Part shown: piece after piece, positions 4,972-39,568 of the stretch
Layout: every line of letters begins with the position of its first letter
Position numbering within the stretch: position 1 is the stretch's first letter
Origin: Candidatus Scatosoma sp.
GTDB lineage: Bacteria > Bacillota > Clostridia > Christensenellales > Borkfalkiaceae
NCBI GenBank assembly: GCA_045532525.1
Contig: JAZSGC010000085.1
Coordinates: 1-46,694, forward strand
Direction of reading: 5' to 3'
Length of the DNA stretch: 46,694 nucleotides
Program-made: the position numbers and the translations under genes
The notes under the pieces: model-generated
The model's input: only the letters and a program-made list of their open reading frames with translations
Databases searched by the model: none
What the model was told of the DNA's origin: nothing

Positions 4972-6687
4972 TTAAAGCTTGGGCTTAACCAACACCGTTT
5001 TATAATCGGTATATACCACAAACCCCGCTTTGCTTTTGCTCGGTTTTTTTACAAATTTTCGCTTACAGTAATCCACGGGGATTTTATCTGCTTCCCGTCC
5101 GTCGGAGTAATACGCGCATATTTCCGCGGCTCGTAAAATAATTTCATCGCGTACCTGCCCCCCACGTACGGCAATAATTACGTGGGAAGAATGGTATTTT
5201 TGCGTGTGTAACCAAATATCGTCGGGGTCGGCTTCGCGCAGCAACCTGTCGTTTTGCAGGTTGTTCCGCCCCGCATAAATGGTAAAGCCTTCAAACGTAA
5301 ACTCGCGGAAAGGTAGGGGGGCTTCTTTTTTCTTGCCGCCCACCCGCTCTTTGGGCGCACGCAACAAGCCAAGCTCCGTCAATTCCTGTTCGATTTCCTT
5401 TAAGTCCAAAGCATTTTCGGCGTTTGTAATGGCGGAAAGAACGCTATCCGTGTATGCAATTTCCGCTTGCTCCGCTTGCAGCATCGGCGTTAAAATCTCG
5501 CTCGCGCGCTTATGTTTATTGTAAATTTTAAAATACCGCTGTGCATTTTTCGCAGGCGAAAGAGTGGTATCCAGCGCAATTTTCACCGTGCCGCCCTGCT
5601 CATCGTACCAGTTTTCTAATTCCACGCCGCGCATACCCTTTTCGATACGGTATAAATTCGCCGTCAACAGCTCGCCTTTTATGCGGTATTCTTCCGCTTT
5701 TTTCGCTTCATTTAAGCGTTCTAAGGTGTCTTGCAATTTTTTGGTTTGTTTCTTTTTTAACGCCCGCGCGGTGTTTTCCAGCTTGCGTTTTTTATCTTCA
5801 AACCCCTTTTTATTTTCCCGACGGGTGAAAAACTCGTCTTCCGCTTTGCACAGCGACGGCATCGGCTCGCCGCCGTCTACGGGAAAAGCAAAAAAATCCA
5901 CGGGCTGTCCGTTTTGCGTTTTTAAGCAGGGAACGCACGGCTCGTTTTGACAAAACTCGCCAACAAATTCCCAAAGCGGCGCACCGTACGCGGACGAAAG
6001 GGTGTTTTTCACCGAGCCTGCTTTCTTTGCCGCGCGCATAACGATTTCCCGCGCCGTAGGCAAAGCCAACCCCGAAACGTTTTCAAAAAGAAAAAAGGAA
6101 AGCCCTTCCGCGTCCGCTTCTTCTTGCCGCAGGGAAAGATAATTTTCCAGCCGTGAACGCATACCTGCCCCGTCGAAAGGGGATAATTTATCCTGCGGAA
6201 CGGGATATTCGTATCTCGCCCCCGCAAGCAAAACACGCCTAGAACTATCTTCCAGCGCCGTCGTTTTTAACGCGCCTAAAATCACTCCGTTTTCCGTTAA
6301 AATCACGTTGGAGTATTTGCCCATTAGTTCGCAATGCAGCGTGCGCTTGCTTTCGGAAAAATCGGTAGTACAATGCAAATCGATTTCGATAATGCGTTCA
6401 AAGGCGTATTGCCGCACCGTCAAAATTTCCGCGTTTTGCAGGTGCTTGCGAAGCAACATACAAAAATTCGGCGCGACGGGCGCGGGCTCTTTTTCCGTCA
6501 AAGACAAACAAACGCGTGCGTTGGACGCATTTGCACTCAAAATAAGTTTAACCGTCGATTTTTCGGTGTATATAATAAAGGTGAGCTCGTCCTTATTTAC
6601 TTGCGAAATGCGGTTTATTTTTCCGTGTACAAGCAAGGTATTCAGTTCGGTCGCCAAACGGCGAATATGAAAAGCGTCCTGCGGCAT
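4972..6687 (-). CDS. rqcH: Ribosome quality control protein RqcH (NFACT / FbpA family)
   Basis: 571-aa ORF with an NFACT-N domain, a central coiled coil and a C-terminal NFACT-R/DUF814 region ('WLHTQKYHSSHVII'). Confidence 0.9.
   Translation of the reverse strand: MPQDAFHIRRLATELNTLLVHGKINRISQVNKDELTFIIYTEKSTVKLILSANASNARVCLSLTEKEPAPVAPNFCMLLRKHLQNAEILTVRQYAFERIIEIDLHCTTDFSESKRTLHCELMGKYSNVILTENGVILGALKTTALEDSSRRVLLAGARYEYPVPQDKLSPFDGAGMRSRLENYLSLRQEEADAEGLSFFLFENVSGLALPTAREIVMRAAKKAGSVKNTLSSAYGAPLWEFVGEFCQNEPCVPCLKTQNGQPVDFFAFPVDGGEPMPSLCKAEDEFFTRRENKKGFEDKKRKLENTARALKKKQTKKLQDTLERLNEAKKAEEYRIKGELLTANLYRIEKGMRGVELENWYDEQGGTVKIALDTTLSPAKNAQRYFKIYNKHKRASEILTPMLQAEQAEIAYTDSVLSAITNAENALDLKEIEQELTELGLLRAPKERVGGKKKEAPLPFREFTFEGFTIYAGRNNLQNDRLLREADPDDIWLHTQKYHSSHVIIAVRGGQVRDEIILRAAEICAYYSDGREADKIPVDYCKRKFVKKPSKSKAGFVVYTDYKTVLVKPKL
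5143..5163 (+). repeat. Dispersed repeat copy j (inside rqcH)
   Basis: ttcatcgcgtacctgcccccc. Read by rqcH as 'GGQVRDE'. Confidence 0.7.
6154..6174 (+). repeat. Dispersed repeat copy i (inside rqcH)
   Basis: tgaacgcatacctgccccgtc. Read by rqcH as 'DGAGMRS', a different frame from copy j. Confidence 0.7.
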
Positions 6688-6855
6688 AACCTTACGTCTC
6701 CTTTCCCTAAATTATACCCTAATTTTACGAAATTGTAAATAAAAACGAGCAAAAAACGCTTTATTTTCTTCCTTAAATATGGTAAAATATAAAGCGGTAT
6801 TATCAAAAACCAAGAAAAAATAAAAATTCATATAGATTCAGGAGAATTTCAAACT

Positions 6856-8154
6856 ATGAAGTACACTACCAAAGCGGCAGAAAAAAGCACGGTAAAAATC
6901 ACCTTCAAAATCGACGGTGAAGAATGGAAAGCAGCGGTTCAAAACGCTTACCTTAAAACGAGAGGAAGATTTGCTATCAACGGCTTCCGTAAAGGCAAAG
7001 CTCCCAAATACGTTATCGAAGACGTTTACGGTAAGGGCGTATTTTACGAAGACGCGCTCAATAACCTTTTCAACGAAAATTATGGCAAGGTAATTGATAA
7101 GGAACAAAAGAAATTTACGGTCGTTGGCGATCCCGAAGTTTCCGTAGAGAAATTAGAAGAGGACAACGTTACCATCGTAGCGGTTGTTCCCGTAAAACCC
7201 GAAGTGAAAATTTCTTCCTACACGGGTATGAAAATTAAGCAATTTGCGTATACTGTAAAAGACGAAGAAATCGACGCGGAACTCAACCGCGTGCTCGATA
7301 GAAACGCTCGTAAAGTAGCGGTTACCGACCGCGCTGCACAAGACGGCGACATCGTAAACATCGACTTCGTTGGTACGGTGGACGGCGTGAAGTTCGACGG
7401 CGGTGAAGCGGAAGGCTACGATTTGACACTTGGTAGCGGTCAGTTCATTCCCGGCTTTGAAGAACAGGTCGTTGGTATGAACATCGGCGAAACGAGGGAC
7501 GTGAACGTTACCTTCCCCGAAAACTACCAGGCGGAAGCTTTGAAGGGCAAAGCGGCTGTGTTTGCCGTGAAATTGAACGGCATTCAGGCAAAGGAACTTC
7601 CCGAAGTTACCGACGAATTCATCAAGGAAGCTACGGGCAGCGAAACGCTTGACGCGTACAAGGCAAAAACGAGAGAAAAGCTTGAAAAGCAAGCGGAACG
7701 CCGTGCAAACGACGCAACCGAAAACAGCATTCTCGACGCAATCTCCGCAAACGCAGAAGTTGAAATTCCCCAAGCGATGATTGAAAGAGAAATCGACAAT
7801 CTCGTTAAGAAGTTTGAATATCAGCTTATGTATCAGGGCTTGAAGCTGCAAGACTACCTTGAATTCTTGAAAATCGACGTTTCCGAGTTTAGAAAGAACT
7901 ATGAAGAACAAGCAAAGAAGAACGTTTTGAACCAGCTTGTTATTTCTCAGCTTATTAAGGACGAAAAAATCGAAGCGACGGACGAAGAAGTAGACGCGCA
8001 AATCGCCAAGCAGGCAGCGGAAGTCAACAAGACGACGGAAGAATACAAGAAGAATATGGATCCCCGTCAATTCGACTATATCAGCAGCGATATCGTTATC
8101 ACCAAGCTTTTCGACTTCTTGAAAGCAAACAACGAAATGTACTTGGAAGACTAA
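6856..8154 (+). CDS. tig: Trigger factor
   Basis: 432-aa ORF with the ribosome-binding 'GFRKGKAP' motif, a central FKBP-type PPIase and a C-terminal chaperone domain. SD 'aggag' upstream. Confidence 0.96.
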   Translation: MKYTTKAAEKSTVKITFKIDGEEWKAAVQNAYLKTRGRFAINGFRKGKAPKYVIEDVYGKGVFYEDALNNLFNENYGKVIDKEQKKFTVVGDPEVSVEKLEEDNVTIVAVVPVKPEVKISSYTGMKIKQFAYTVKDEEIDAELNRVLDRNARKVAVTDRAAQDGDIVNIDFVGTVDGVKFDGGEAEGYDLTLGSGQFIPGFEEQVVGMNIGETRDVNVTFPENYQAEALKGKAAVFAVKLNGIQAKELPEVTDEFIKEATGSETLDAYKAKTREKLEKQAERRANDATENSILDAISANAEVEIPQAMIEREIDNLVKKFEYQLMYQGLKLQDYLEFLKIDVSEFRKNYEEQAKKNVLNQLVISQLIKDEKIEATDEEVDAQIAKQAAEVNKTTEEYKKNMDPRQFDYISSDIVITKLFDFLKANNEMYLED

Positions 8155-8207
8155 TCGCCGAAAAGTAAAACTGCTTTTATTGCGAATTTTTGCAAACCTG
8201 TTTATAC

Positions 8208-8234
8208 CGACGCGCCCGATTTTTGGGCGCGTCG
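8208..8234 (+). other. GC-rich stem-loop after tig (weak terminator or processing signal)
   Basis: cgacgcgccc / gggcgcgtcg, a 10-bp perfect stem with loop gattttt. No U-tract follows it. Confidence 0.4.
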
Positions 8235-8270
8235 CAAATTCCTAATCCAACATAAGGACGATTATTAAAA

Positions 8271-8861
8271 ATGGAAAAGAACGTTTTGGTTCCCTACGTT
8301 GTGGAACGCACTTCTTCGGGGGAAAGATCTTATGATTTATATTCCCGTTTGCTGGACGATAGAATTATCTTTTTAAGCGGCGAAATCAACGACGCGTTGG
8401 CAAATACCGTCGTTGCACAGCTCATCTATTTGGAGGGTAAGGATTCCACCAAAGACATCAGCTTGTATATCAACTCTCCCGGCGGCTCGGTTTCCGCTGG
8501 TATGGCGATTTACGACACGATGAACTACATCAAATGCGACGTTTCCACAATTTGTATCGGTTTGGCTGCGTCGATGGGCGCGTTCCTGCTTTCCAGCGGC
8601 GCGCGCGGTAAGCGTTACGCTTTGCCCAACTCCGAAATTATGATTCATCAGCCCCTTGGCGGCGCGCAAGGTCAGGCGAGCGATATCAAAATCCAAGCGG
8701 AGCATATCTTGCGTACCAAAGCAAAACTCAATCGTATTCTTGCTGAAAACACGGGCAAGGACATCTCGATTATCGAACGCGATACCGACCGCGACAATTA
8801 CATGTCTGCGGACGAAGCTCGCAATTACGGTTTGATTGACAGAGTATTCACTAGAAGATAA
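8271..8861 (+). CDS. clpP: ATP-dependent Clp protease proteolytic subunit
   Basis: 196-aa ORF with active-site Ser in '[11 protein letters not shown]' and His in 'MIHQPLGG'. Confidence 0.97.
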
Positions 8862-8880
8862 TCCTTTCGTTTGAGTGTTG

Positions 8881-8919
8881 CGCGCAAATTCCCCTTCGGG
8901 TTTTTGCGCGTTTTCTTCC
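8881..8919 (+). terminator. Intrinsic terminator/attenuator between clpP and clpX
   Basis: cgcgcaaa (8881-8888) / tttgcgcg (8903-8910) with an inner ccc/ggg pairing, followed by ttttcttcc. Confidence 0.7.
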
Positions 8920-8927
8920 AAAACCCC

Positions 8928-8957
8928 AAAACGAGTGGGGCAGGTATGCGATGAACG
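8928..8957 (-). repeat. Dispersed repeat copy a (clpP-clpX spacer, inverted orientation)
   Basis: The plus strand reads aaaacgagtggggcaggtatgcgatgaacg. Confidence 0.8.
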
Positions 8958-9022
8958 AAAGTTTTTCAAGCTTTCACCCTTTATTTTCGACGCGCATATC
9001 TATAAAAATATGGAGTTTAATT

Positions 9023-10267
9023 ATGGCAAATAAAAATCAGCATTGTTCTTTTTGCGGAAAACCCAAAGAAGAAACCCGCCGCTTAATTACTGGCCCTGAC
9101 GGGACTTGTATTTGCGACGAGTGTGTGGATATCTGCAAATCTATGATAGACGAATGGTCGGAAGATAAGGAAAAGAAGAACAGCAAGGTTCCTTTAAAAA
9201 AGCCCGCGGAAATTAAGGCGGAGCTTGATAACTATATCGTCGGTCAGGATAAGGCGAAGCGCGTGCTTTCGGTTGCCGTTTACAACCATTATAAGCGTAT
9301 CAACGCTACCGTCGGCAAAAAGAAAAAGGACGACGACGGCGTGGAAATCGAAAAGAGCAACGTGCTTTTACTTGGGCCTACGGGCAGCGGCAAAACCCTG
9401 CTTGCTCGTACGCTGGCAAAAATTTTAAACGTACCTTTCGCCACTTCGGACGCGACCACGCTCACCGAAGCGGGCTACGTTGGGGAAGACGTTGAAAATA
9501 TTTTGTTGAAGCTTATCCAAAACGCCGATTACGACATCGAACGCGCACAACGCGGTATTATCTATATCGACGAAATCGATAAAATTGCAAGAAAGAGCGA
9601 AAACGTCTCTATCACGCGCGACGTATCGGGCGAAGGCGTACAACAAGCGCTTTTGAAAATTATCGAAAGCACGACGGCAAGCGTACCCCCGCAGGGTGGC
9701 AGAAAGCACCCTAATCAAGAGCTTTTGCGCATTGACACCACGAATATTTTGTTTATTTGCGGCGGTGCGTACGTGGGGCTTGACCGAATCGTTTCTTCGC
9801 GTAAGGACGATACGACGCTCGGCTTCGGCGGCAAGGTTCGCCTTGGCGCAAACGAAGCGGATTACTCCGTCTTAGACGACGTTAAACCGCAGGATTTAAC
9901 GAAATTTGGGCTTATCCCCGAATTTGTCGGTAGACTTCCTATCGTAGTAAATCTTGACCCGCTTGGCGAAGACGCGTTAGTGAAAATTTTAACCGAACCC
10001 AAAAACGCAATTATCAAGCAATATCAAAAGCTTGTCGGCTTCGACGGCGTAAAGCTGACGGTGGAAGACGACGCGGTGCGTGAAATTGCGCAAACAGCAA
10101 TTCGTTTAAAGACGGGCGCGCGCGGACTTCGTACAATTATCGAAAACGTAATGACGGACGTTATGTATAAAATCCCTTCCGAAGAAAACGTAGAAGAAGT
10201 TGTCATCACTAAGGAATGTTTAACGGACGGCGCAACGCCTAAGCTTGTCTATAAGCAATCCGCTTAA
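9023..10267 (+). CDS. clpX: ATP-dependent Clp protease ATP-binding subunit ClpX
   Basis: N-terminal C4 zinc finger 'CSFCGK...CDEC', Walker A 'GPTGSGKT' and 'IYIDEIDK'. I moved the start from the track ORF (8951) to ATG 9023, which has SD 'tggag'. Confidence 0.95.
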
Positions 10268-11381: not shown

Positions 11382-11443
11382 TTTTATTTCTCCTTAAAAT
11401 TCAAATTTCTTCCGCTTTCCGTTAGGAAAGACTTGCGTTGCAA

Positions 11444-11749
11444 TTAGAGTTCAATTTTTTCAACTTTAACTGCGGTGAAGGGCTGTCTGTGACCCTGCTT
11501 CTTACGTTCGTTCTTCTTAGCCTTGTACTTGAAGACGATGATTTTCTTCGCCTTGTCCTGCTTAACGACCGTAGCGGTAACCTTTGCGGATTCAACTTCC
11601 GCGCCCGTCTTAATACCGTTTTCGTCGGCAACCATCAGCACTTTGAAAGATACGGTTTCGCCTTCCGCAGCCGCGAGCTTTTCCACTCTAACTACGTCGC
11701 CTTCCGCAACCTTGTACTGCTTGTTCCCATTATCGATGATAGCGTACAT
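11444..11749 (-). CDS. rplU: 50S ribosomal protein L21
   Basis: '[20 protein letters not shown]...'. I trimmed the start to ATG 11749, which is preceded by SD 'ggagg'. Confidence 0.95.
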
Positions 11750-34071: not shown

Positions 34072-34145
34072 ATGCAAAAAATTGATTAAATTTGCATATT
34101 TTTTTTGTTTTGCCTATTGACAACGCGTAAAATTTGTAGTAAAAT
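34072..34145 (+). promoter_or_regulatory. Promoter of the SPFH operon with an upstream inverted repeat
   Basis: IR ATGCAAA (34072-78) - N12 - TTTGCAT (34091-97). Then TTGACA (34117-22), a 17-nt spacer and TAAAAT (34140-45). Confidence 0.6.
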
Positions 34146-34245
34146 GTAAAATAAGGACGAAAAATAGCGTCTTAAAAACACTCGGATGGAAAAAACTTGT
34201 AAAAATTCATACAAAAGACCGAGAAAAAGACGTTAGAAAAAGTCC

Positions 34246-34278
34246 TTTCTTTCGTATATTGACGGCATACGAAAGAAA
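34246..34278 (+). promoter_or_regulatory. Perfect 12-bp hairpin in the ~180-nt 5' leader of the SPFH operon
   Basis: tttctttcgtat (34246-57) / atacgaaagaaa (34267-78) with a 9-nt loop attgacggc. No U-tract follows. It sits 45 nt upstream of the ATG. Confidence 0.6.
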
Positions 34279-34323
34279 TCCACTCGTCAAAATAAAAAAA
34301 TTATTATAAAGAGGTGCAACATT

Positions 34324-35643
34324 ATGGCAGAAACCGGTGGAACTCACATCATCAAATGGGATGAGGGTTGGGGCGACATCAACGAAGTGCTCATTTACAA
34401 GCACGCCGTAGAAGACTTCAAAACCCATTCCGTACTTATCGTTAACCCTTCCCAGGTTGCAATCGTTTACGATTCTCAAACTCGTAAGCCGCACGTTTTC
34501 AGAGAAGGCAGACACGAAAAAGCACTTGAGCAACTTAACCAGAACCACATCTTGCGTATGGGGCTCGGCGACAAGATTTTGTACAAAGAAAACACGTCTT
34601 ATCACATCGACGTTTACTTTGTAAATCTCGTTTACTTAAAGATGAAATTCGGTACGCCCGATCCCATTCAGCTTTACGATCCGATGGAAGACATTAACTT
34701 CGATTTGAAAGCTGCTGCCGGTTACGAATTGCAAATTGCTGAACCCGCTATGTTTAAAGAATTGCTCAGCGGTACGAAGCATTTGTTCACCAAGACGGAT
34801 TTAAAGACGTTCATCAACGATAAAATTATCGAATTGGTTACGACGGAAACGGCTTCCTTGTTCAAGGATCCCAATAGCGGCTTCAACATCTATCAAATGA
34901 GCGCGCAGGCTTCCGTGCTTTCCAAGGCGGTGGAACAGGCTATCGTTCCCTACTTGCAGGAACGCGGTATCGCAATCAAGAACTTCTCGTTTGTAAACCT
35001 TGAAGCAAGCGGCGAACAATACAAAGAAGCTTTGAAGGCAAACGTAGCAATGAGAAACGAAGCAAGAAGATTGCAGAAGCTCGGCATTACGTACGCACAA
35101 GAAAAGCAGATCGAAGTAATGAAGACGGCGGCTGGCAACGAATCCGCTGGTATGGCTCCGTTTATGGGCGCTGGTATGGGTATCGGTATGGGCGTCGGTA
35201 TGGGCGGCGCATTCGGCGCAGGTATGGCGAATATGGCGAACCAAGCGTTTGCTCCCCAAGGTCAACCCCAGCAACCCTACGGTTATCCCCAACAGCCCTA
35301 TGGCTATCCCCCTCAGGGTTATCCTCAGCAGCCTTACGGCTATCCCCCTCAGGGTCAAGCGCCCCAAGGCTATCCTCAACAGCCCTACGGCTATCCCCCT
35401 CAGGGTCAAGCGCCCCAAGGCTATCCTCAACAGCCTTACGGCTATCCCCCTCAGGGTCAAGCGCCTCAAGGCTATCCTCAACAGCCCTATGGCTATCCCC
35501 CTCAGGGCGCACCTGCACCCGCTCCCGAAGGCGCACCCGCTCCTGCTCCTGCACCCGCTCCTGCGGCTGCGGTATGCCCGAAGTGCGGTCAGCCCGTTCA
35601 ACCCGGCGCAACGGTTTGCGCTTGCGGTCAGCAACTTGTATAA
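34324..35643 (+). CDS. SPFH/band-7 protein of the COG4260 (YdjI-like) type with a G/M-rich segment, a P/Q/Y-rich repeat linker and a C-terminal zinc ribbon
   Basis: 439-aa ORF with SD 'gaggtg'. '...VYFVN...KFGTPDPIQLYDP...' matches the YdjI-type SPFH core. Also 'GMGIGMGVGMGGAFGAGMANMAN', (YPQQPYGYPPQGQAPQG)n and 'CPKCGQP...CACGQQ'. Confidence 0.8.
   Translation: MAETGGTHIIKWDEGWGDINEVLIYKHAVEDFKTHSVLIVNPSQVAIVYDSQTRKPHVFREGRHEKALEQLNQNHILRMGLGDKILYKENTSYHIDVYFVNLVYLKMKFGTPDPIQLYDPMEDINFDLKAAAGYELQIAEPAMFKELLSGTKHLFTKTDLKTFINDKIIELVTTETASLFKDPNSGFNIYQMSAQASVLSKAVEQAIVPYLQERGIAIKNFSFVNLEASGEQYKEALKANVAMRNEARRLQKLGITYAQEKQIEVMKTAAGNESAGMAPFMGAGMGIGMGVGMGGAFGAGMANMANQAFAPQGQPQQPYGYPQQPYGYPPQGYPQQPYGYPPQGQAPQGYPQQPYGYPPQGQAPQGYPQQPYGYPPQGQAPQGYPQQPYGYPPQGAPAPAPEGAPAPAPAPAPAAAVCPKCGQPVQPGATVCACGQQLV
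35320..35508 (+). repeat. Near-identical 51-nt in-frame tandem repeat (3 full units plus partial units)
   Basis: Units at 35320-35370, 35371-35421 and 35422-35472, with a partial unit at 35473-35508. Degenerate copies lie upstream from about 35266. Units differ only by a few synonymous changes. Confidence 0.9.
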
Positions 35644-35663
35644 TGTAAAGGAGAATATAAATT

Positions 35664-36446
35664 ATGGATGCAAAGAAAGGCTTTAAAAAGCATTACGTGC
35701 TCATCGGTTGGGCAATCGTATGGGTAATTTTCTTGATTCTTGCGTTGACGCTTCCCGCAACGACGTATAAGGGAGAAAAGGTGGTGGCTGGTATCACCGT
35801 AAAAGATCCTTCTCAAGACGGTTTGAAAGGCGCAGGCTTCACGTACTGGGGCGGCTTCATCTTCATCAACATCGCGTTTATCGTAGTTGGTGCGGTGATG
35901 TTCCTTGTACAACGCAAAGGCACGACGCACGCAAACAGCCAAATTACGACGTACCTTGCAGTTGGCGGATATTTCGCAGTTGCGTTTATCCTGAACTTCA
36001 TCTTTATGTGCGTTTATAAGAAGACCTGGGCGGCAGGCGTGTTGATTCCCAACATCATTCTTTTGTTGCTTGCGGCTGGTTTGATTATGTTCGTACTTCG
36101 TGCGGAAGGTCACGTTGCGGAAGTAGGCGAAAAGCTTACGGAAAAAGCGGTTGTTTTGGAAAACTTCGAAATCAGAGTAAGCGCACTTGTTATGCTTGCA
36201 AACGATTACGACGTAAAGAAAGCGCTTGAAACCTTGTACAACGAAGTAAGATATGCGGATTCGATGAGCGTTCCCGCTGCGCAACAGCAAGAAAACGCGT
36301 TTATGGAAAAATTGGTTGAACTTCAAGAAATGCTTGAAGACGAAGCTTCCGACAAGGAAGAAATCCTTAAACTCGTTAAGAAGGCTAGCACGGCTTGGAA
36401 AATCAGAAACGAATTCGTTCAAGTTTACAACAGCAGAATGGGCTAA
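35664..36446 (+). CDS. Hypothetical membrane protein (4 TM plus ~110-aa helical cytoplasmic tail)
   Basis: 260-aa ORF with SD 'aaggag', 20 nt after gene 1. I recognise no family. Confidence 0.8.
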   Translation: MDAKKGFKKHYVLIGWAIVWVIFLILALTLPATTYKGEKVVAGITVKDPSQDGLKGAGFTYWGGFIFINIAFIVVGAVMFLVQRKGTTHANSQITTYLAVGGYFAVAFILNFIFMCVYKKTWAAGVLIPNIILLLLAAGLIMFVLRAEGHVAEVGEKLTEKAVVLENFEIRVSALVMLANDYDVKKALETLYNEVRYADSMSVPAAQQQENAFMEKLVELQEMLEDEASDKEEILKLVKKASTAWKIRNEFVQVYNSRMG

Positions 36447-36474
36447 GATATAGCTGAGAAAACGGATAAGTGCA

Positions 36475-36505
36475 GCTCTGCCGTGGCGTTAGGTTGCGGC
36501 AGAGC
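36475..36505 (+). other. Intercistronic GC-rich hairpin
   Basis: gctctgccg (36475-83) / cggcagagc (36497-505), a 9-bp perfect stem with a 13-nt loop. No U-tract follows. Confidence 0.55.
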
Positions 36506-36546
36506 GCAACATAATATTATAAATAAAAAATAAGAGGTGTCAATTT

Positions 36547-37347
36547 ATGGAAGCTCAGGTATATAAATGTCCAGGCTGTGGTCAGCCTATCGACTTTGCC
36601 AGCGTAGACTTTAAAACGCGCCGCGCACATTGCGAATGGTGTGAAAACGACGTCGTTTTGCCTAGACAGGAAGTTGCAAATTCCGATAAAGTATTAAACG
36701 AATTGAAACAAGCGGTTCGTTTCTTCACGGAAAAGGATTTCCCTATGGCGCAAAAATATGCGGAAGAAGTGTTGACGACGGCTGTCGACCACGCGGTAGG
36801 TTTATTTATTCACGGATACGTGCGCGCGTTCGTGGACAGCGGCAAGAAGAGAGAAACGCTGAACAAGTTCTTTAGCGAAACTCTCCCCACCATCGATATG
36901 ACGGACGAAGAATTGGAAGGCTTTAAGAGCTGCGTTCTTTCGGTTGCGCCGAATATCGTGGACTACGAAGAACCCATTTTGGCGGCGGTGCTCGCAAACG
37001 ACCCCAACGGCGTGGTAGCGTTCACCGAAGCATTCTCGCCCGCTTGCGTTATGAACCGCACGGACATCGAATGGGTAAACGACAACATTTTCAACATCTA
37101 CAAAGAAATCGGTTCAAGAGGGGTTCTTCCCAAAACGTGGTATGCGTTGTTTGCAGGTATGCTGCAAAATCCGTACTCGCCGTATAAATCCGGTTTCCAC
37201 TTAAAGACCCGCGCGAACATCTTCCTTGAAAAGTACGTAAACCGTTTGGAAGCTTTGTTCAACGCGATCCCCGACGCAACGTTGCGCGCAAAATTCTACG
37301 GCGCGTTTACGAATAAAAAACAAGAATTCATGTCAAAGATGAATTAA
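36547..37347 (+). CDS. Zinc-ribbon protein with a helical C-terminal domain (YdjG-like in architecture only)
   Basis: 266-aa ORF with SD 'gaggtg'. N-terminus 'CPGCGQP...CEWCEN'. No TM segment. Confidence 0.8.
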   Translation: MEAQVYKCPGCGQPIDFASVDFKTRRAHCEWCENDVVLPRQEVANSDKVLNELKQAVRFFTEKDFPMAQKYAEEVLTTAVDHAVGLFIHGYVRAFVDSGKKRETLNKFFSETLPTIDMTDEELEGFKSCVLSVAPNIVDYEEPILAAVLANDPNGVVAFTEAFSPACVMNRTDIEWVNDNIFNIYKEIGSRGVLPKTWYALFAGMLQNPYSPYKSGFHLKTRANIFLEKYVNRLEALFNAIPDATLRAKFYGAFTNKKQEFMSKMN

Positions 37348-37366
37348 ATAAAGGAGGCAACAAAAA

Positions 37367-39166
37367 ATGTCAGATTATGTACAAGTCAGTATTGACTATA
37401 ACCACATAGCCCGTATAGTCAATAATGCAGTTAGCCCTATCGACAACAACGTTAGAGTTGTGTCGCGTCAGGTAGAAGAAGCGCAACAAGATATTCTTAG
37501 ATTGCAACGCGAACTTGCGGATTTCAGAAAGCAACAAGAATTCGCAGCAGCGTTACAGCGCGCTATCACCGAAATCATTCGTGTTCGTCAAGAACTCGAC
37601 GAAAAATTCGGTACGCACAAGCAAGTTAGAGACAATATGCTTGGTATTTTGCAGGCAAACGATCTCGCGCTCGTTGGTAAAGACGCAATCAGCAAGTGCT
37701 CGGAAGAACTTATGCTTTCCGCGCCCGAATACTGGCTTGCTCCTTCCCTTATCGCATTGGCAGCTTGGATCGGCAACAACAAAGCGCTTGCTGACCGTGC
37801 TATCAAAGAAGCTTGTAAGCGTGACAAAGAAAAGACCGCATTGTTGTTCGCGTTGATTTGCCGTAGAAACGGTAGAACCAAGGCTTGCTTCAAGTGGTTG
37901 CTCGTATACTTCGATCAGCAAGATCCTCTTGCAATGAGAAAGAGTATCATCGCTTTCGTTGACGCATACTCCAACGGCGTATTCGGCGAAGACGAAGAAA
38001 ACATTTGTAAAGAAACCATCGACGACTGGATGGAACAGCTTAAAGAAGCAAACAGCCAGTTCGACGCAGATCAAAAGGCTTACTGGTCCAACTACTACCT
38101 TACGATGTGCGCAGGCAACCCTTCCCTTGGCGCAGACTACGAACTCTTGAAGAAAGTCAGCCCCCAAGCAAAGGCTATGGACGAATACGTTTCCAGAATC
38201 GTTGCTGTGGACAGATCGAAAGGTATCAGAGAAAGCTTCAACGAAATTTTGTATGCTGAAATCAACGTAACGCCGCTCGTTAAAGAAATCGACAAGCAGC
38301 TCTTCAACTTGGTTACGGCTTATGAAAAAGAAGAAGAAAGCCTTCGTGGCGAAGAACAATTCTTCACCCTCGTTAAAGAATACAGCGGTGACGAAAAGCT
38401 TGCTAAGAAGATTATGCGTATCCAAGAAGCAAGAAAGTACGATCCCCCCGTTGACTTCGCAAAGAGATTGTCGCAGTCCATTACGGCGAAGGGTGAACAG
38501 GAAGCTGCTGTGGCTATGTCCGCAAAGAAGACGGCTTTGAAATTGCTCCGTACATATATCGAAAGCGCATTTGAAGACTTCTTGCTTGAAAAGAAAGACG
38601 CTTATCCTCAGGAAATCAGCCTTGTTATCAGCGAAAAAGGTACGACGGCTGGTAAGTTTACGGGTAAGAACTTCAAGTGGGTTGGCAAGACGGCTGACGG
38701 CGAAAACGGCGACGAATTGAAGAAAGACCTTGCTTCTAAGTACGAAACGGCAAAGAATGAAAGTATCGCTTCCGTTGTGGATTCCAAGAAACCTTTGGTA
38801 TTGACGATTATCTTCGGCGTATTGTTCGTTGCAGGTTTGATTATGGGTCTTTGCAAGGTTGGCTTCGGCTGGTTCTTGTTTGCAGTTGGTATCGTTGGTG
38901 CAATTTTTGGCGTTGTATTGTTGCTCAAAGAAAAGAAGACCAACAAGATGAACAAAGAATTGTTCCAGAACTATTATACGGCAGCTAACGTGAAAGCAGG
39001 TAAGATTGTTGACGAAGCTTTGAAAGCAAGAGCAAGAATCAATGCTTTGGTTGCTGCATTCGAAGCTAACGAAAACTCCACGAAGTTGTTCGTTCCTAAG
39101 ACGGAAGCTGCGGAAGTTGCAGAAGAAGTTGTTGAAGAAGTTGCAGTTGCAGAGGAGGTAGAATAA
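37367..39166 (+). CDS. Large hypothetical coiled-coil / TM-hairpin protein
   Basis: 599-aa ORF with SD 'aaggagg'. N-terminal coiled coil, a long helical region, a TM hairpin 'LVLTIIFGVLFVAGLIMGLCKVGFGWFLFAVGIVGAIFGVVLLL' and an acidic tail 'EVAEEVVEEVAVAEEVE'. I recognise no family. Confidence 0.8.
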   Translation: MSDYVQVSIDYNHIARIVNNAVSPIDNNVRVVSRQVEEAQQDILRLQRELADFRKQQEFAAALQRAITEIIRVRQELDEKFGTHKQVRDNMLGILQANDLALVGKDAISKCSEELMLSAPEYWLAPSLIALAAWIGNNKALADRAIKEACKRDKEKTALLFALICRRNGRTKACFKWLLVYFDQQDPLAMRKSIIAFVDAYSNGVFGEDEENICKETIDDWMEQLKEANSQFDADQKAYWSNYYLTMCAGNPSLGADYELLKKVSPQAKAMDEYVSRIVAVDRSKGIRESFNEILYAEINVTPLVKEIDKQLFNLVTAYEKEEESLRGEEQFFTLVKEYSGDEKLAKKIMRIQEARKYDPPVDFAKRLSQSITAKGEQEAAVAMSAKKTALKLLRTYIESAFEDFLLEKKDAYPQEISLVISEKGTTAGKFTGKNFKWVGKTADGENGDELKKDLASKYETAKNESIASVVDSKKPLVLTIIFGVLFVAGLIMGLCKVGFGWFLFAVGIVGAIFGVVLLLKEKKTNKMNKELFQNYYTAANVKAGKIVDEALKARARINALVAAFEANENSTKLFVPKTEAAEVAEEVVEEVAVAEEVE

Positions 39167-39393
39167 TGGCTGATATGGATTTGGGATTGGACTTAGGTTT
39201 GTCCTTAGACGATATTGGTGTTGACGCAGCGGAAATGGAAAAGCTCGCACCCGAAACGAAAGTAGAACTCGCTGAAAACCTTGACGGTTTCGCAAACGGG
39301 TTCAGCGCTGACTGGGATTTGGACGTTCCTGCCGAAGTTATGCAAGAAATCGCGGCAAAGAAAGAAAGAAGAAAAGCAGCAAAGAAAAGATAA
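39166..39393 (+). CDS. Small acidic protein with a basic C-terminal tail
   Basis: 75-aa ORF. Its start overlaps the upstream stop (TAATG), and SD 'agaggagg' lies upstream. 'MADMDLGLDLGLSLDD...KKERRKAAKKR'. Confidence 0.7.
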   Translation: MADMDLGLDLGLSLDDIGVDAAEMEKLAPETKVELAENLDGFANGFSADWDLDVPAEVMQEIAAKKERRKAAKKR

Positions 39394-39415: not shown

Positions 39416-39454
39416 AAAAAGTCCCGTCGCGGTATTCCGCGGCGGGATTTTTTA
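39416..39454 (+). terminator. Intrinsic terminator of the SPFH operon
   Basis: tcccgtcgcgg / ccgcggcggga stem with one G-T pair and loop tatt, followed by tttttt. Confidence 0.85.
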
Positions 39455-39530: not shown

Positions 39531-39568
39531 CAAAAAAAGACCTTCTACGGAAAACCCGTAGAAGGTCG
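39531..39568 (-). terminator. Intrinsic terminator of gap
   Basis: gaccttctacgg / ccgtagaaggtc, a 12-bp stem. The minus strand reads a U-run after it. Confidence 0.88.

Follow-up and report, generated by a model that had tools for sequence, protein, structure and literature searches.

An operon of five co-directional open reading frames (ORFs) lies on the + strand of a 46,694-nt stretch of DNA from Candidatus Scatosoma sp. This stretch is referred to below as the window, and all operon coordinates are given on its + strand. The first gene encodes an SPFH protein of the YdjI type, and the other four encode partner proteins with no significant match in the family libraries searched. As a five-gene module the operon is real and robust. 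Gene 1 (34324-35643, 439 amino acids (aa)), gene 2 (35664-36446, 260 aa), gene 3 (36547-37347, 266 aa) and gene 4 (37367-39166, 599 aa) are separated by gaps of 20, 100 and 19 nt, and gene 4 runs into gene 5 (39166-39393, 75 aa) through a TAATG stop/start overlap that couples the translation of the two.

One genome per species was scanned with gene 4, which gave relatives in 320 species, and 80 loci were kept for the analysis of synteny. These come from Clostridia (Lachnospiraceae, Oscillospiraceae and Christensenellaceae), Bacilli and Erysipelotrichaceae, Coriobacteriaceae/Collinsella and one Spirochaetales metagenome-assembled genome, and nearly all derive from gut or rumen samples. Gene order and strand, followed by tblastn and ORF mapping, are constant: the SPFH gene (~400-480 aa) is followed by genes for proteins of ~235 aa, ~269 aa and ~555 aa and then by a small ORF. 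We refer to this arrangement as type A. When only loci on sufficiently long contigs are counted, gene 1 lies upstream on the same strand in 67 of 68, gene 3 is found in 76 of 76 and the gene 5 motif in 76 of 78, and the gene 2 slot is filled by an ORF of 225-265 aa in 68 loci. Genes 1, 3, 4 and 5 occur together in the same order in 63 of 66 loci; co-occurrence and order in related genomes had been left as a point to check by an initial annotation made from the sequence alone, and the co-conservation is strong. The components also diverge together: the identities of gene 4 correlate with those of gene 3 (Spearman's rho 0.80) and of gene 1 (0.54). Chance adjacency does not explain the arrangement, and the five genes are inherited as a unit across several phyla.

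The module can also be seen decaying in a cellulolytic Herbinix-like lineage (loci L087-L090, e.g. GCA_900198705.1 FZPS01000181.1, locus coordinates ~5570-9162). Here only the last ~71 codons of gene 1 are left, with loss of the SPFH domain, and gene 4, depending on the assembly, either carries a frameshift that divides it into 409 + 138 aa or has lost part of its length; genes 2, 3 and 5 are intact. The loss of the SPFH domain together with damage to gene 4 fits a functional interdependence of the components.

Against Pfam, NCBIfam, PADLOC and PHROGs, genes 2-5 matched nothing significantly, and no match of the five proteins in PADLOC-DB 2.0 fell below E = 0.02. Searches of PDB sequences with genes 2-5, as single sequences and as family profiles, yielded nothing beyond generic similarities to coiled coils, to an Rpo12-type ribbon, to a single TPR repeat and to designed helical bundles. 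No description of the module was found in the literature on Band_7_1/PF13421/COG4260, on SPFH proteins with defence or on SPFH proteins with Cdc48. In the libraries and papers that could be searched, the SPFH family of gene 1 is known; none of them describes the five genes as a system, the four partner families, the motif of gene 5 or the type B module presented below. The initial annotation had named the operon its best candidate for an undescribed system, and this view holds, as no curated library or searchable paper describes the module and profile searches placed genes 2, 4 and 5 in no characterised family.

Architecture of the five proteins

Residues 29-244 of gene 1 (34408-35055) match the SPFH domain family Band_7_1 of Pfam (PF13421) with E = 1.3e-13 and 51.5 bits, against a cut-off of 24. 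The linker that follows is Gly/Met-rich and Pro/Gln-rich, and part of it, (YPQQPYGYPPQGQAPQG)n, is encoded by a 51-bp tandem repeat at 35320-35507 (3.7 copies, 95% identity in Tandem Repeats Finder). The near-identity of the repeat copies suggests recent expansion and a variable linker length; the linkers of the orthologues are of low complexity and vary in length and composition. At its C-terminus the protein carries a zinc ribbon, CPKCG...CACG (residues 417-436, 35572-35631), with sub-threshold matches to Zn_ribbon families, and a CxxC...CxxC ending, in most cases a double ribbon, is shared by 69 of 72 orthologues. Neither the window protein nor any of the 72 orthologues has a predicted hydrophobic or transmembrane (TM) segment. 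These features make gene 1 a soluble SPFH protein of the YdjI type, in which a flexible linker leads to a zinc ribbon, and the family and terminal ribbon given to it in the initial annotation are borne out by the Band_7_1 match.

The predicted membrane-embedded components of the module are genes 2 and 4 alone. Gene 2 has four TM segments (residues 12-30, 64-82, 99-117 and 126-144) followed by a cytoplasmic helical tail that bears an L.KLKE.VDYS motif. Two polar residues within the membrane helices, Asn111 in TM3 and Asn130 in TM4, are invariant in the orthologue alignment.

Gene 3 has no TM segment. Its AF2 model, built with database homologues, has a predicted local distance difference test (pLDDT) score of 93.5 and a predicted template-modelling (pTM) score of 0.87, and shows a zinc ribbon of four strands with a solenoid of 13 helices after it. 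The ribbon, CPGCG...CEWCE (residues 5-37, 36559-36657), matches an Rpo12/eS27-type ribbon profile with E = 7e-4, and its four cysteines (C8, C11, C29 and C32) are invariant; an N-terminal ribbon followed by a helical domain is what had been read from the sequence at the outset. One TPR-like repeat was matched by the gene 3 profile (E = 0.003), and Foldseek comparison of the model with the PDB gave weak TPR-like matches such as MamA (probability 0.97, but E = 0.09). For genes 3 and 4 alike the top fold matches are TPR proteins (MamA, consensus TPR, Tom71, PEX5 and PilF), at E >= 0.02 and with low TM-scores. On these weak fold matches, gene 3 may be described as a cytosolic zinc ribbon joined to a TPR-like helical solenoid, and gene 4 as likewise containing a TPR-like helical-repeat domain. 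Paralogy of the two helical repeat proteins was considered and rejected (hhalign probability 0.1%).

The AF2 model of gene 4 (pLDDT 82.7) consists, in order, of a continuous N-terminal helix (residues 11-96), a solenoid extending to residue ~410, a small beta element, a hairpin and a long C-terminal helix. Its most conserved core, residues 60-250 (37544-38116), is common to the type B homologues in an alignment of both clades and contains many invariant Trp, Arg and Glu residues (EELM..P.YWL.P...W...); a second block common to both types spans residues 309-346. The membrane hairpin at residues 476-520 (38792-38926) was located by a hydropathy scan as two hydrophobic helices with a KVGFG turn, and corresponds to model helices 475-495 and 501-567. 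In some orthologues the hydrophobic stretch is shorter and has a central Pro or Gly, which would fit a hairpin with both ends in the cytoplasm. The acidic tail, listed as a feature of the protein in the initial annotation, is disordered and unconserved.

Gene 4 has more than 300 homologues in a collection of 5.8 billion proteins, all unnamed and without a Pfam domain, and an exhaustive profile search puts the family at no fewer than 756 clusters. No significant relative in sequence or fold was found in Pfam, in PDB sequences and profiles, or by Foldseek against the PDB and the viral BFVD collection (nothing at E <= 0.001). The question of whether its N-terminus resembles ESCRT-III (endosomal sorting complex required for transport) or PspA, which had been raised from the sequence, is answered in the negative: this region is modelled as a single helix and not as the long alpha1-alpha2 hairpin with shorter helices. 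There was no match to PspA_IM30 or Snf7 in Pfam at E <= 1, no ESCRT-III or PspA protein among the 50 PDB matches listed by Foldseek for the full-length model (best E 0.02), and an hhalign probability of 0.8% (E = 0.074) for the gene 4 family against PspA. Together with a phmmer search using PspA, these results led us to reject gene 4 as a cryptic PspA or ESCRT-III protein.

Gene 5 encodes a small, acidic, disordered protein with a short basic tail after a C-terminal motif. The family consensus, L-x-x-[DN]-L-x-G-F-A-x-x-F-P-x-W-D-L-x-P-P, is nearly invariant, and its Trp is invariant across types A and B; the window protein carries a mildly divergent copy, FANGFSADWDLDV, at 39289-39327, which was recognised by a regular-expression match to [FL]-A-x-x-[FL]-P-x-W-D-[LI]-x-P-P. 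By tblastn, gene 5 was seen in no more than 3 of the 80 loci, a false negative due to its acidic, low-complexity N-terminus, and ORFs were instead extracted from the slot directly 3' of gene 4, where a small ORF is found in ~70 of 80 loci. The family comprises at least 402 clusters at 90% identity, those listed all being 52-79 aa long and unnamed, and public annotation has called the ORF independently. The initial annotation had left genes 2, 4 and 5 without a known family. This stands in that none has a library match, but gene 5 is not an orphan, since it belongs to a conserved family with a near-invariant motif.

Some gene 5 orthologues have an extra N-terminal CxxC...CxxC zinc ribbon (L011 9742-10101; L017 9664-9966; L021 4800-5108; L024 9742-10098), so that in those lineages three of the five proteins carry ribbons. 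This is a hint at a part for the ribbons in assembly or in contact with the membrane.

The gene 4/gene 5 dyad and the type B module

Homologues of gene 4 with 30-33% identity over residues 16-500 were found by tblastn on plasmids and phages. They belong to a second arrangement, type B, with hosts among Proteobacteria, Fusobacteria and Streptococcus. Its carriers are the Streptococcus satellite phage Javan368 (14 kb), two small Komagataeibacter plasmids on which insertion sequence (IS) and toxin-antitoxin genes adjoin the module, a Comamonas megaplasmid, a Fusobacterium replicon and two proviral contigs from IMG/VR (L081 9674-14257; L082 1106-5629; L083 6447-10982; L084 6932-11405; L085 7986-12522; L086 7473-12240). 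The type B set comprises the gene 4 homologue, a gene 5 homologue, a helical protein of ~155-185 aa (signature TYAEW...W...QKSLE.SA..DRSG), an AAA protein of ~520 aa and a protein of ~160 aa (signature KCYLG.PYEVH...IIEH). The AAA protein has one classical AAA domain, closest to the D2 domain of VAT/p97/Cdc48 (3e-61). No gene for an SPFH, four-TM or zinc-ribbon/TPR protein is present in the type B loci, and neither of the type B-specific small proteins has a Pfam or PADLOC match. Type B, too, appears to be undescribed.

The small ORF directly after the gene 4 homologue in type B carries the same motif as gene 5 (...AFPEWDLLPATQFVRRR; ...LPSWDIVPPQLLVRRKRQK, the ORF being unannotated in Javan368). 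With its FPxWD[LI]xP motif and basic tail, it keeps the adjacency and order of genes 4 and 5 seen in type A. Of 140 sampled representatives of the gene 4 family, 48 group with type A and 92 with type B. Genes 4 and 5, the only components common to both types, are an ancient dyad and form the persistent core, to which the SPFH and AAA sets are alternative additions. The initial description of the module as SPFH-centred accordingly needs revision: it may not be centred on the SPFH protein, because the dyad also pairs with a Cdc48-like AAA ATPase where SPFH is absent.

In Javan368 (L081, MK448457.1) the gene 5-type ORF, of 58 aa (...FAEGLPSWDIVPPQLLVRRKRQK), lies at 11409-11585 on the + strand between JavanS368_0004 and _0003; being unannotated, it is a conserved gene that the deposited annotation misses. 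Homology of the type B partners to gene 2 or gene 3 was considered and rejected, as no profile match was significant. The best resemblance across the two types covers 26 residues, between the gene 2 tail (~221-247, 36324-36404; LEDEASDKEEILKLVKKASTAWK) and the N-terminus of the ~185-aa type B protein (FKNKDDDETVLKMMKSGTIEWQ; L081 11585-12049), with an hhalign E-value of 0.006 and a probability of 5.9%. It could be a common docking element for gene 4, or it could be chance.

The location of type B raises the possibility of an anti-phage or conflict system, in which the dyad would sense infection, the gene 4 hairpin and gene 2 would disrupt the membrane so that the infection aborts, and an SPFH ring would restrain them. 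Such a role is favoured by the carriers of the sister type (the satellite phage, the small plasmids with IS and toxin-antitoxin genes next to it, the megaplasmid and the two contigs from IMG/VR), by the two invariant polar Asn residues within the TM helices of gene 2 and by the patchy spread of type A over Firmicutes, Coriobacteriia and a spirochaete in gut habitats, with variable flanks. We nevertheless regard it as unlikely. PADLOC is blank for the five proteins and for the type B-specific small proteins, and gives only generic IetA/TRIP13-type matches for the AAA ATPase. Type A was not found in the viral, phage and plasmid collections searched. Across the 80 loci the genes closest to it serve housekeeping or metabolism (ribosomal protein L7/L12, nitroreductases, regulators and transporters), and any one defence family accounts for at most 2 of 124 type A neighbours. 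The module has no conserved extra neighbour, the single recurrent cluster being generic ABC ATPases.

The Cdc48/VAT-type partner of type B also suggests, by analogy with HflK/C-FtsH, quality control or extraction of membrane proteins, with the SPFH protein (type A) or the Cdc48-like unfoldase (type B) acting on clients selected by gene 4 and with gene 5 as an adaptor, a regulator or a degron-like tail. SPFH cages are established to enclose and regulate the AAA protease FtsH (cited in PMC11188069), and gene 5, disordered and acidic with a conserved terminal peptide, resembles the tails read by adaptors and unfoldases. The type A operon, however, encodes neither a protease nor an ATPase, no FtsH gene is linked to it in the 80 loci, and the exchange of SPFH for AAA may mean different biology and not equivalent roles. 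We consider this explanation rather improbable.

Expression signals and surroundings of the operon

A sigma-A-type promoter, TTGACA-17-TAAAAT (34117-34145, 11 of 12 consensus matches), is the top + strand match in the region and is kept in the closest relative, locus L001. It is of a constitutive type, which again argues against a conflict system, as does the lack of any anomaly in G+C content (0.471 for the module and 0.453 for the window). The sigma-W motif TGAAAC-N16/17-CGTA does not occur in the window, with the reservation that the extracytoplasmic function (ECF) sigma factors of the host may differ. A response to envelope or phage stress, as suggested in the initial annotation, remains conjecture: the promoter resembles sigma-A and not ECF promoters, and type A lies among housekeeping genes and not in defence islands.

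The promoter is followed by a structured 5' leader of ~175 nt (34150-34323; predicted fold energy -36.2 kcal/mol, shuffled sequences -20.4, z = -4.74) that includes a 13-bp hairpin at 34246-34278 and whose first small hairpin is conserved in the closest relative. The leader matches no Rfam family and is not a known riboswitch, since a scan of the whole 46.7-kb window at gathering thresholds gave zero Rfam matches (no tRNA, riboswitch or leader); it may have a regulatory role. Each gene has a Shine-Dalgarno sequence by direct reading: AGAGGTG for genes 1 and 3, AAGGAG for gene 2, AAGGAGG for gene 4 and GAGGAGG for gene 5. Between genes 2 and 3 a hairpin at 36475-36505, with a 9-bp G+C-rich stem (GCTCTGCCG / CGGCAGAGC), a 13-nt loop and no T-run after it, may serve in mRNA processing or stability and set genes 1-2 and genes 3-5 apart in mRNA level. 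An intrinsic terminator at 39422-39453 ends the operon; its 11-bp G+C-rich stem (39422-39432/39437-39447, one G-U pair) encloses a 4-nt loop and is followed by T6 at 39448-39453. The stem was read directly, the automatic scan having seen the inner 6 pairs alone. The layout given in the initial annotation, with its five ORFs, gaps, overlap, strong Shine-Dalgarno sequences, single promoter and strong terminator, was confirmed, the ORFs lying exactly at the positions given.

Two further elements were noted in the spacers. A perfect sigma-70 consensus, TTGACA-16-TATAAT (12 of 12), lies on the - strand at 36516-36543, pointing into gene 2 and overlapping with the ribosome-binding site of gene 3; it could have arisen by chance in an A+T-rich spacer, or it could be a genuine antisense promoter. 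At 39539-39567, between the operon terminator and a convergent gap (GAPDH-like) gene, there is a perfect 12-13 bp hairpin flanked by T-runs on both strands, which is probably the terminator of the minus-strand gap gene. With two separate terminators, transcription from the two sides is insulated. The operon is flanked in the window by rsmI-like, peptidase, phosphodiesterase, gap and fba-like ORFs.

Comparison with known systems and possible role

In B. subtilis, YdjI is a soluble protein that is recruited to the membrane by the membrane proteins YdjG and YdjH (PMC8581546), and recruitment of the SPFH protein by membrane partners is also reported in bioRxiv 10.64898/2026.02.06.704340. The envelope-stress operon concerned, pspA-ydjGHI, has been renamed samGHI. 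YdjG consists of two zinc ribbons, a YpeB-like NTF2 domain and a TM segment, YdjH of a TPM domain, and YdjI of a Band-7 domain and a zinc ribbon (PMC11237479). The module resembles this locus in having a soluble SPFH protein of the same subfamily, with a low-complexity linker and a C-terminal zinc ribbon, and in co-encoding with it membrane proteins and a protein that starts with a ribbon. It differs in lacking PspA and the TPM-domain protein YdjH, in having two extra conserved genes (4 and 5), in the first position of the SPFH gene and in a promoter of the sigma-A type and not the sigma-W (ECF) type. Gene 3, set against the published description of YdjG, has one ribbon, no TM segment and a TPR-like and not an NTF2-like body.

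We weighed whether the operon might be an ordinary phage-shock locus (pspA-ydjGHI/samGHI) whose partners have diverged past recognition. The YdjI architecture of gene 1 (Band_7_1, low-complexity linker, C-terminal ribbon) and the YdjG-like ribbon at the start of gene 3 are what such a locus would show. PspA was searched for by phmmer with the E. coli and B. subtilis proteins, which match each other at 5e-20 as a positive control, and no PspA/IM30 gene was found in the window, within ~8 kb of the module in the 80 loci or among the recurrent neighbours. In Pfam, all five proteins lack a match to PspA_IM30 or Snf7 at E <= 1. Neither TPM_phosphatase nor NfeD was matched by genes 2-5 at E <= 1. With gene 3 built as described, gene 4 unrelated to PspA by hhalign and no sigma-W motif, this explanation is largely refuted and we hold it to be extremely improbable. 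The initial annotation was right to separate the module from pspA-ydjGHI: the YdjI-type SPFH protein is all that the two have in common, the partners differ, and no pspA was found in the window or within ~8 kb of the homologous clusters in the 80 loci.

Comparison can be extended to other loci. PspA/Snf7 proteins associate with Band-7 or AAA+ partners (PMC11237479), archaeal ESCRT-like loci of the 'adaptin' type combine an SPFH, coiled-coil and zinc-ribbon protein with Vps4/Cdc48-like ATPases (PMC11188069), and in some bacteria a TPR membrane protein (TPR-6TM) replaces Snf7 beside a Vps4-like ATPase (PMC11188069, PMC11237479). As in the ESCRT-III/PspA systems, a membrane-proximal core protein is partnered here by an SPFH-type protein or by a classical AAA ATPase. 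Gene 4 is, however, non-homologous to ESCRT-III/PspA by profile and by fold, is ~600 aa long and has a membrane hairpin, and type A has no ATPase. The co-encoding of an SPFH scaffold with a dedicated membrane partner recalls HflK/C-FtsH, stomatin/QmcA-NfeD and flotillin (FloT/YqiK)-YqiJ/YuaF. Unlike the proteins of these classical operons, and unlike FloA and FloT, gene 1 has no membrane anchor of its own; the module also has no detected NfeD/YqiJ-type partner, encodes no protease and has four undescribed partner families.

The reading that we favour, although we give it somewhat less than an even chance, is that the operon encodes a five-protein complex on the cytoplasmic face of the cell membrane which organises or maintains that membrane. 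All soluble domains are predicted to face the cytoplasm. By analogy with the recruitment of YdjI by YdjG/YdjH, genes 2 and 4 would bring the SPFH protein to the membrane, where it would oligomerise into a scaffold, and the zinc-ribbon/TPR protein of gene 3 would be an adaptor. The C-terminal FPxWDLxPP peptide of gene 5 may dock onto the Trp/Arg/Glu-rich solenoid of gene 4, since gene 4 is the sole other component common to both system types; the weak, non-significant fold matches of genes 3 and 4 include the C-terminal-peptide receptors Tom71 and PEX5. The dyad would fill the place that PspA/ESCRT-III occupies in pspA-ydjGHI and in the archaeal ESCRT-like loci. As it keeps the same partners as PspA/ESCRT-III (SPFH or a Vps4/Cdc48-like ATPase), membrane organisation or maintenance appears the most likely role, which could take the form of membrane integrity, microdomains, repair or remodelling, or membrane-protein turnover under a housekeeping-type promoter and a structured leader. 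We count the housekeeping neighbours and the sigma-A-type promoter in favour of a function in membrane maintenance.

Several points weigh against a membrane-maintenance complex. Every step beyond co-inheritance is inferred, and the placing of gene 4 in the position of PspA is an analogy only, because gene 4 has neither homology to PspA/ESCRT-III nor their fold. The similarity in fold to TPR peptide receptors falls short of significance (E >= 0.02), and the gene 5 motif could bind the membrane or a host factor encoded elsewhere. The occurrence of type B on plasmids and satellites suggests a conflict function more than a housekeeping one, and the patchy spread across phyla in gut habitats suggests horizontal transfer of an accessory trait.

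A broader proposal can be put forward tentatively, and we think it possible but doubtful: that the dyad, with gene 4 as a hairpin-anchored solenoid and gene 5 as a small acidic protein with an FPxWDLxPP tail, is the core of an unrecognised class of bacterial machine at the inner membrane face. It would be a counterpart of ESCRT-III/PspA without homology to them and would plug into an SPFH scaffold in the chromosomal type A of gut Firmicutes and Coriobacteriia, or into a Cdc48-like unfoldase in the mobile type B. This would make two new systems with at least six undescribed families.

SPFH proteins (flotillins, stomatins, prohibitins and HflK/C) occur in all domains of life. To our knowledge, what they scaffold is mostly unknown, and the only YdjI-type SPFH protein studied so far has been defined through its link to PspA. 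Here a YdjI-type SPFH protein is wired to a wholly different and strictly conserved set of partners in 320 reference species, many from gut or rumen, with Lachnospiraceae, Oscillospiraceae, Christensenellaceae, Erysipelotrichaceae and Collinsella among the carriers. The module adds four protein families without relatives, for which structure models are confident or at least usable, and a sharply defined peptide motif that is open to binding tests. The exchange of SPFH for a Cdc48-like protein beside the dyad on mobile elements offers a handle on how AAA unfoldases are functionally related to SPFH scaffolds at membranes. Should type B indeed be a defence or addiction system, type A would exemplify a common core that serves in both housekeeping and conflict roles.

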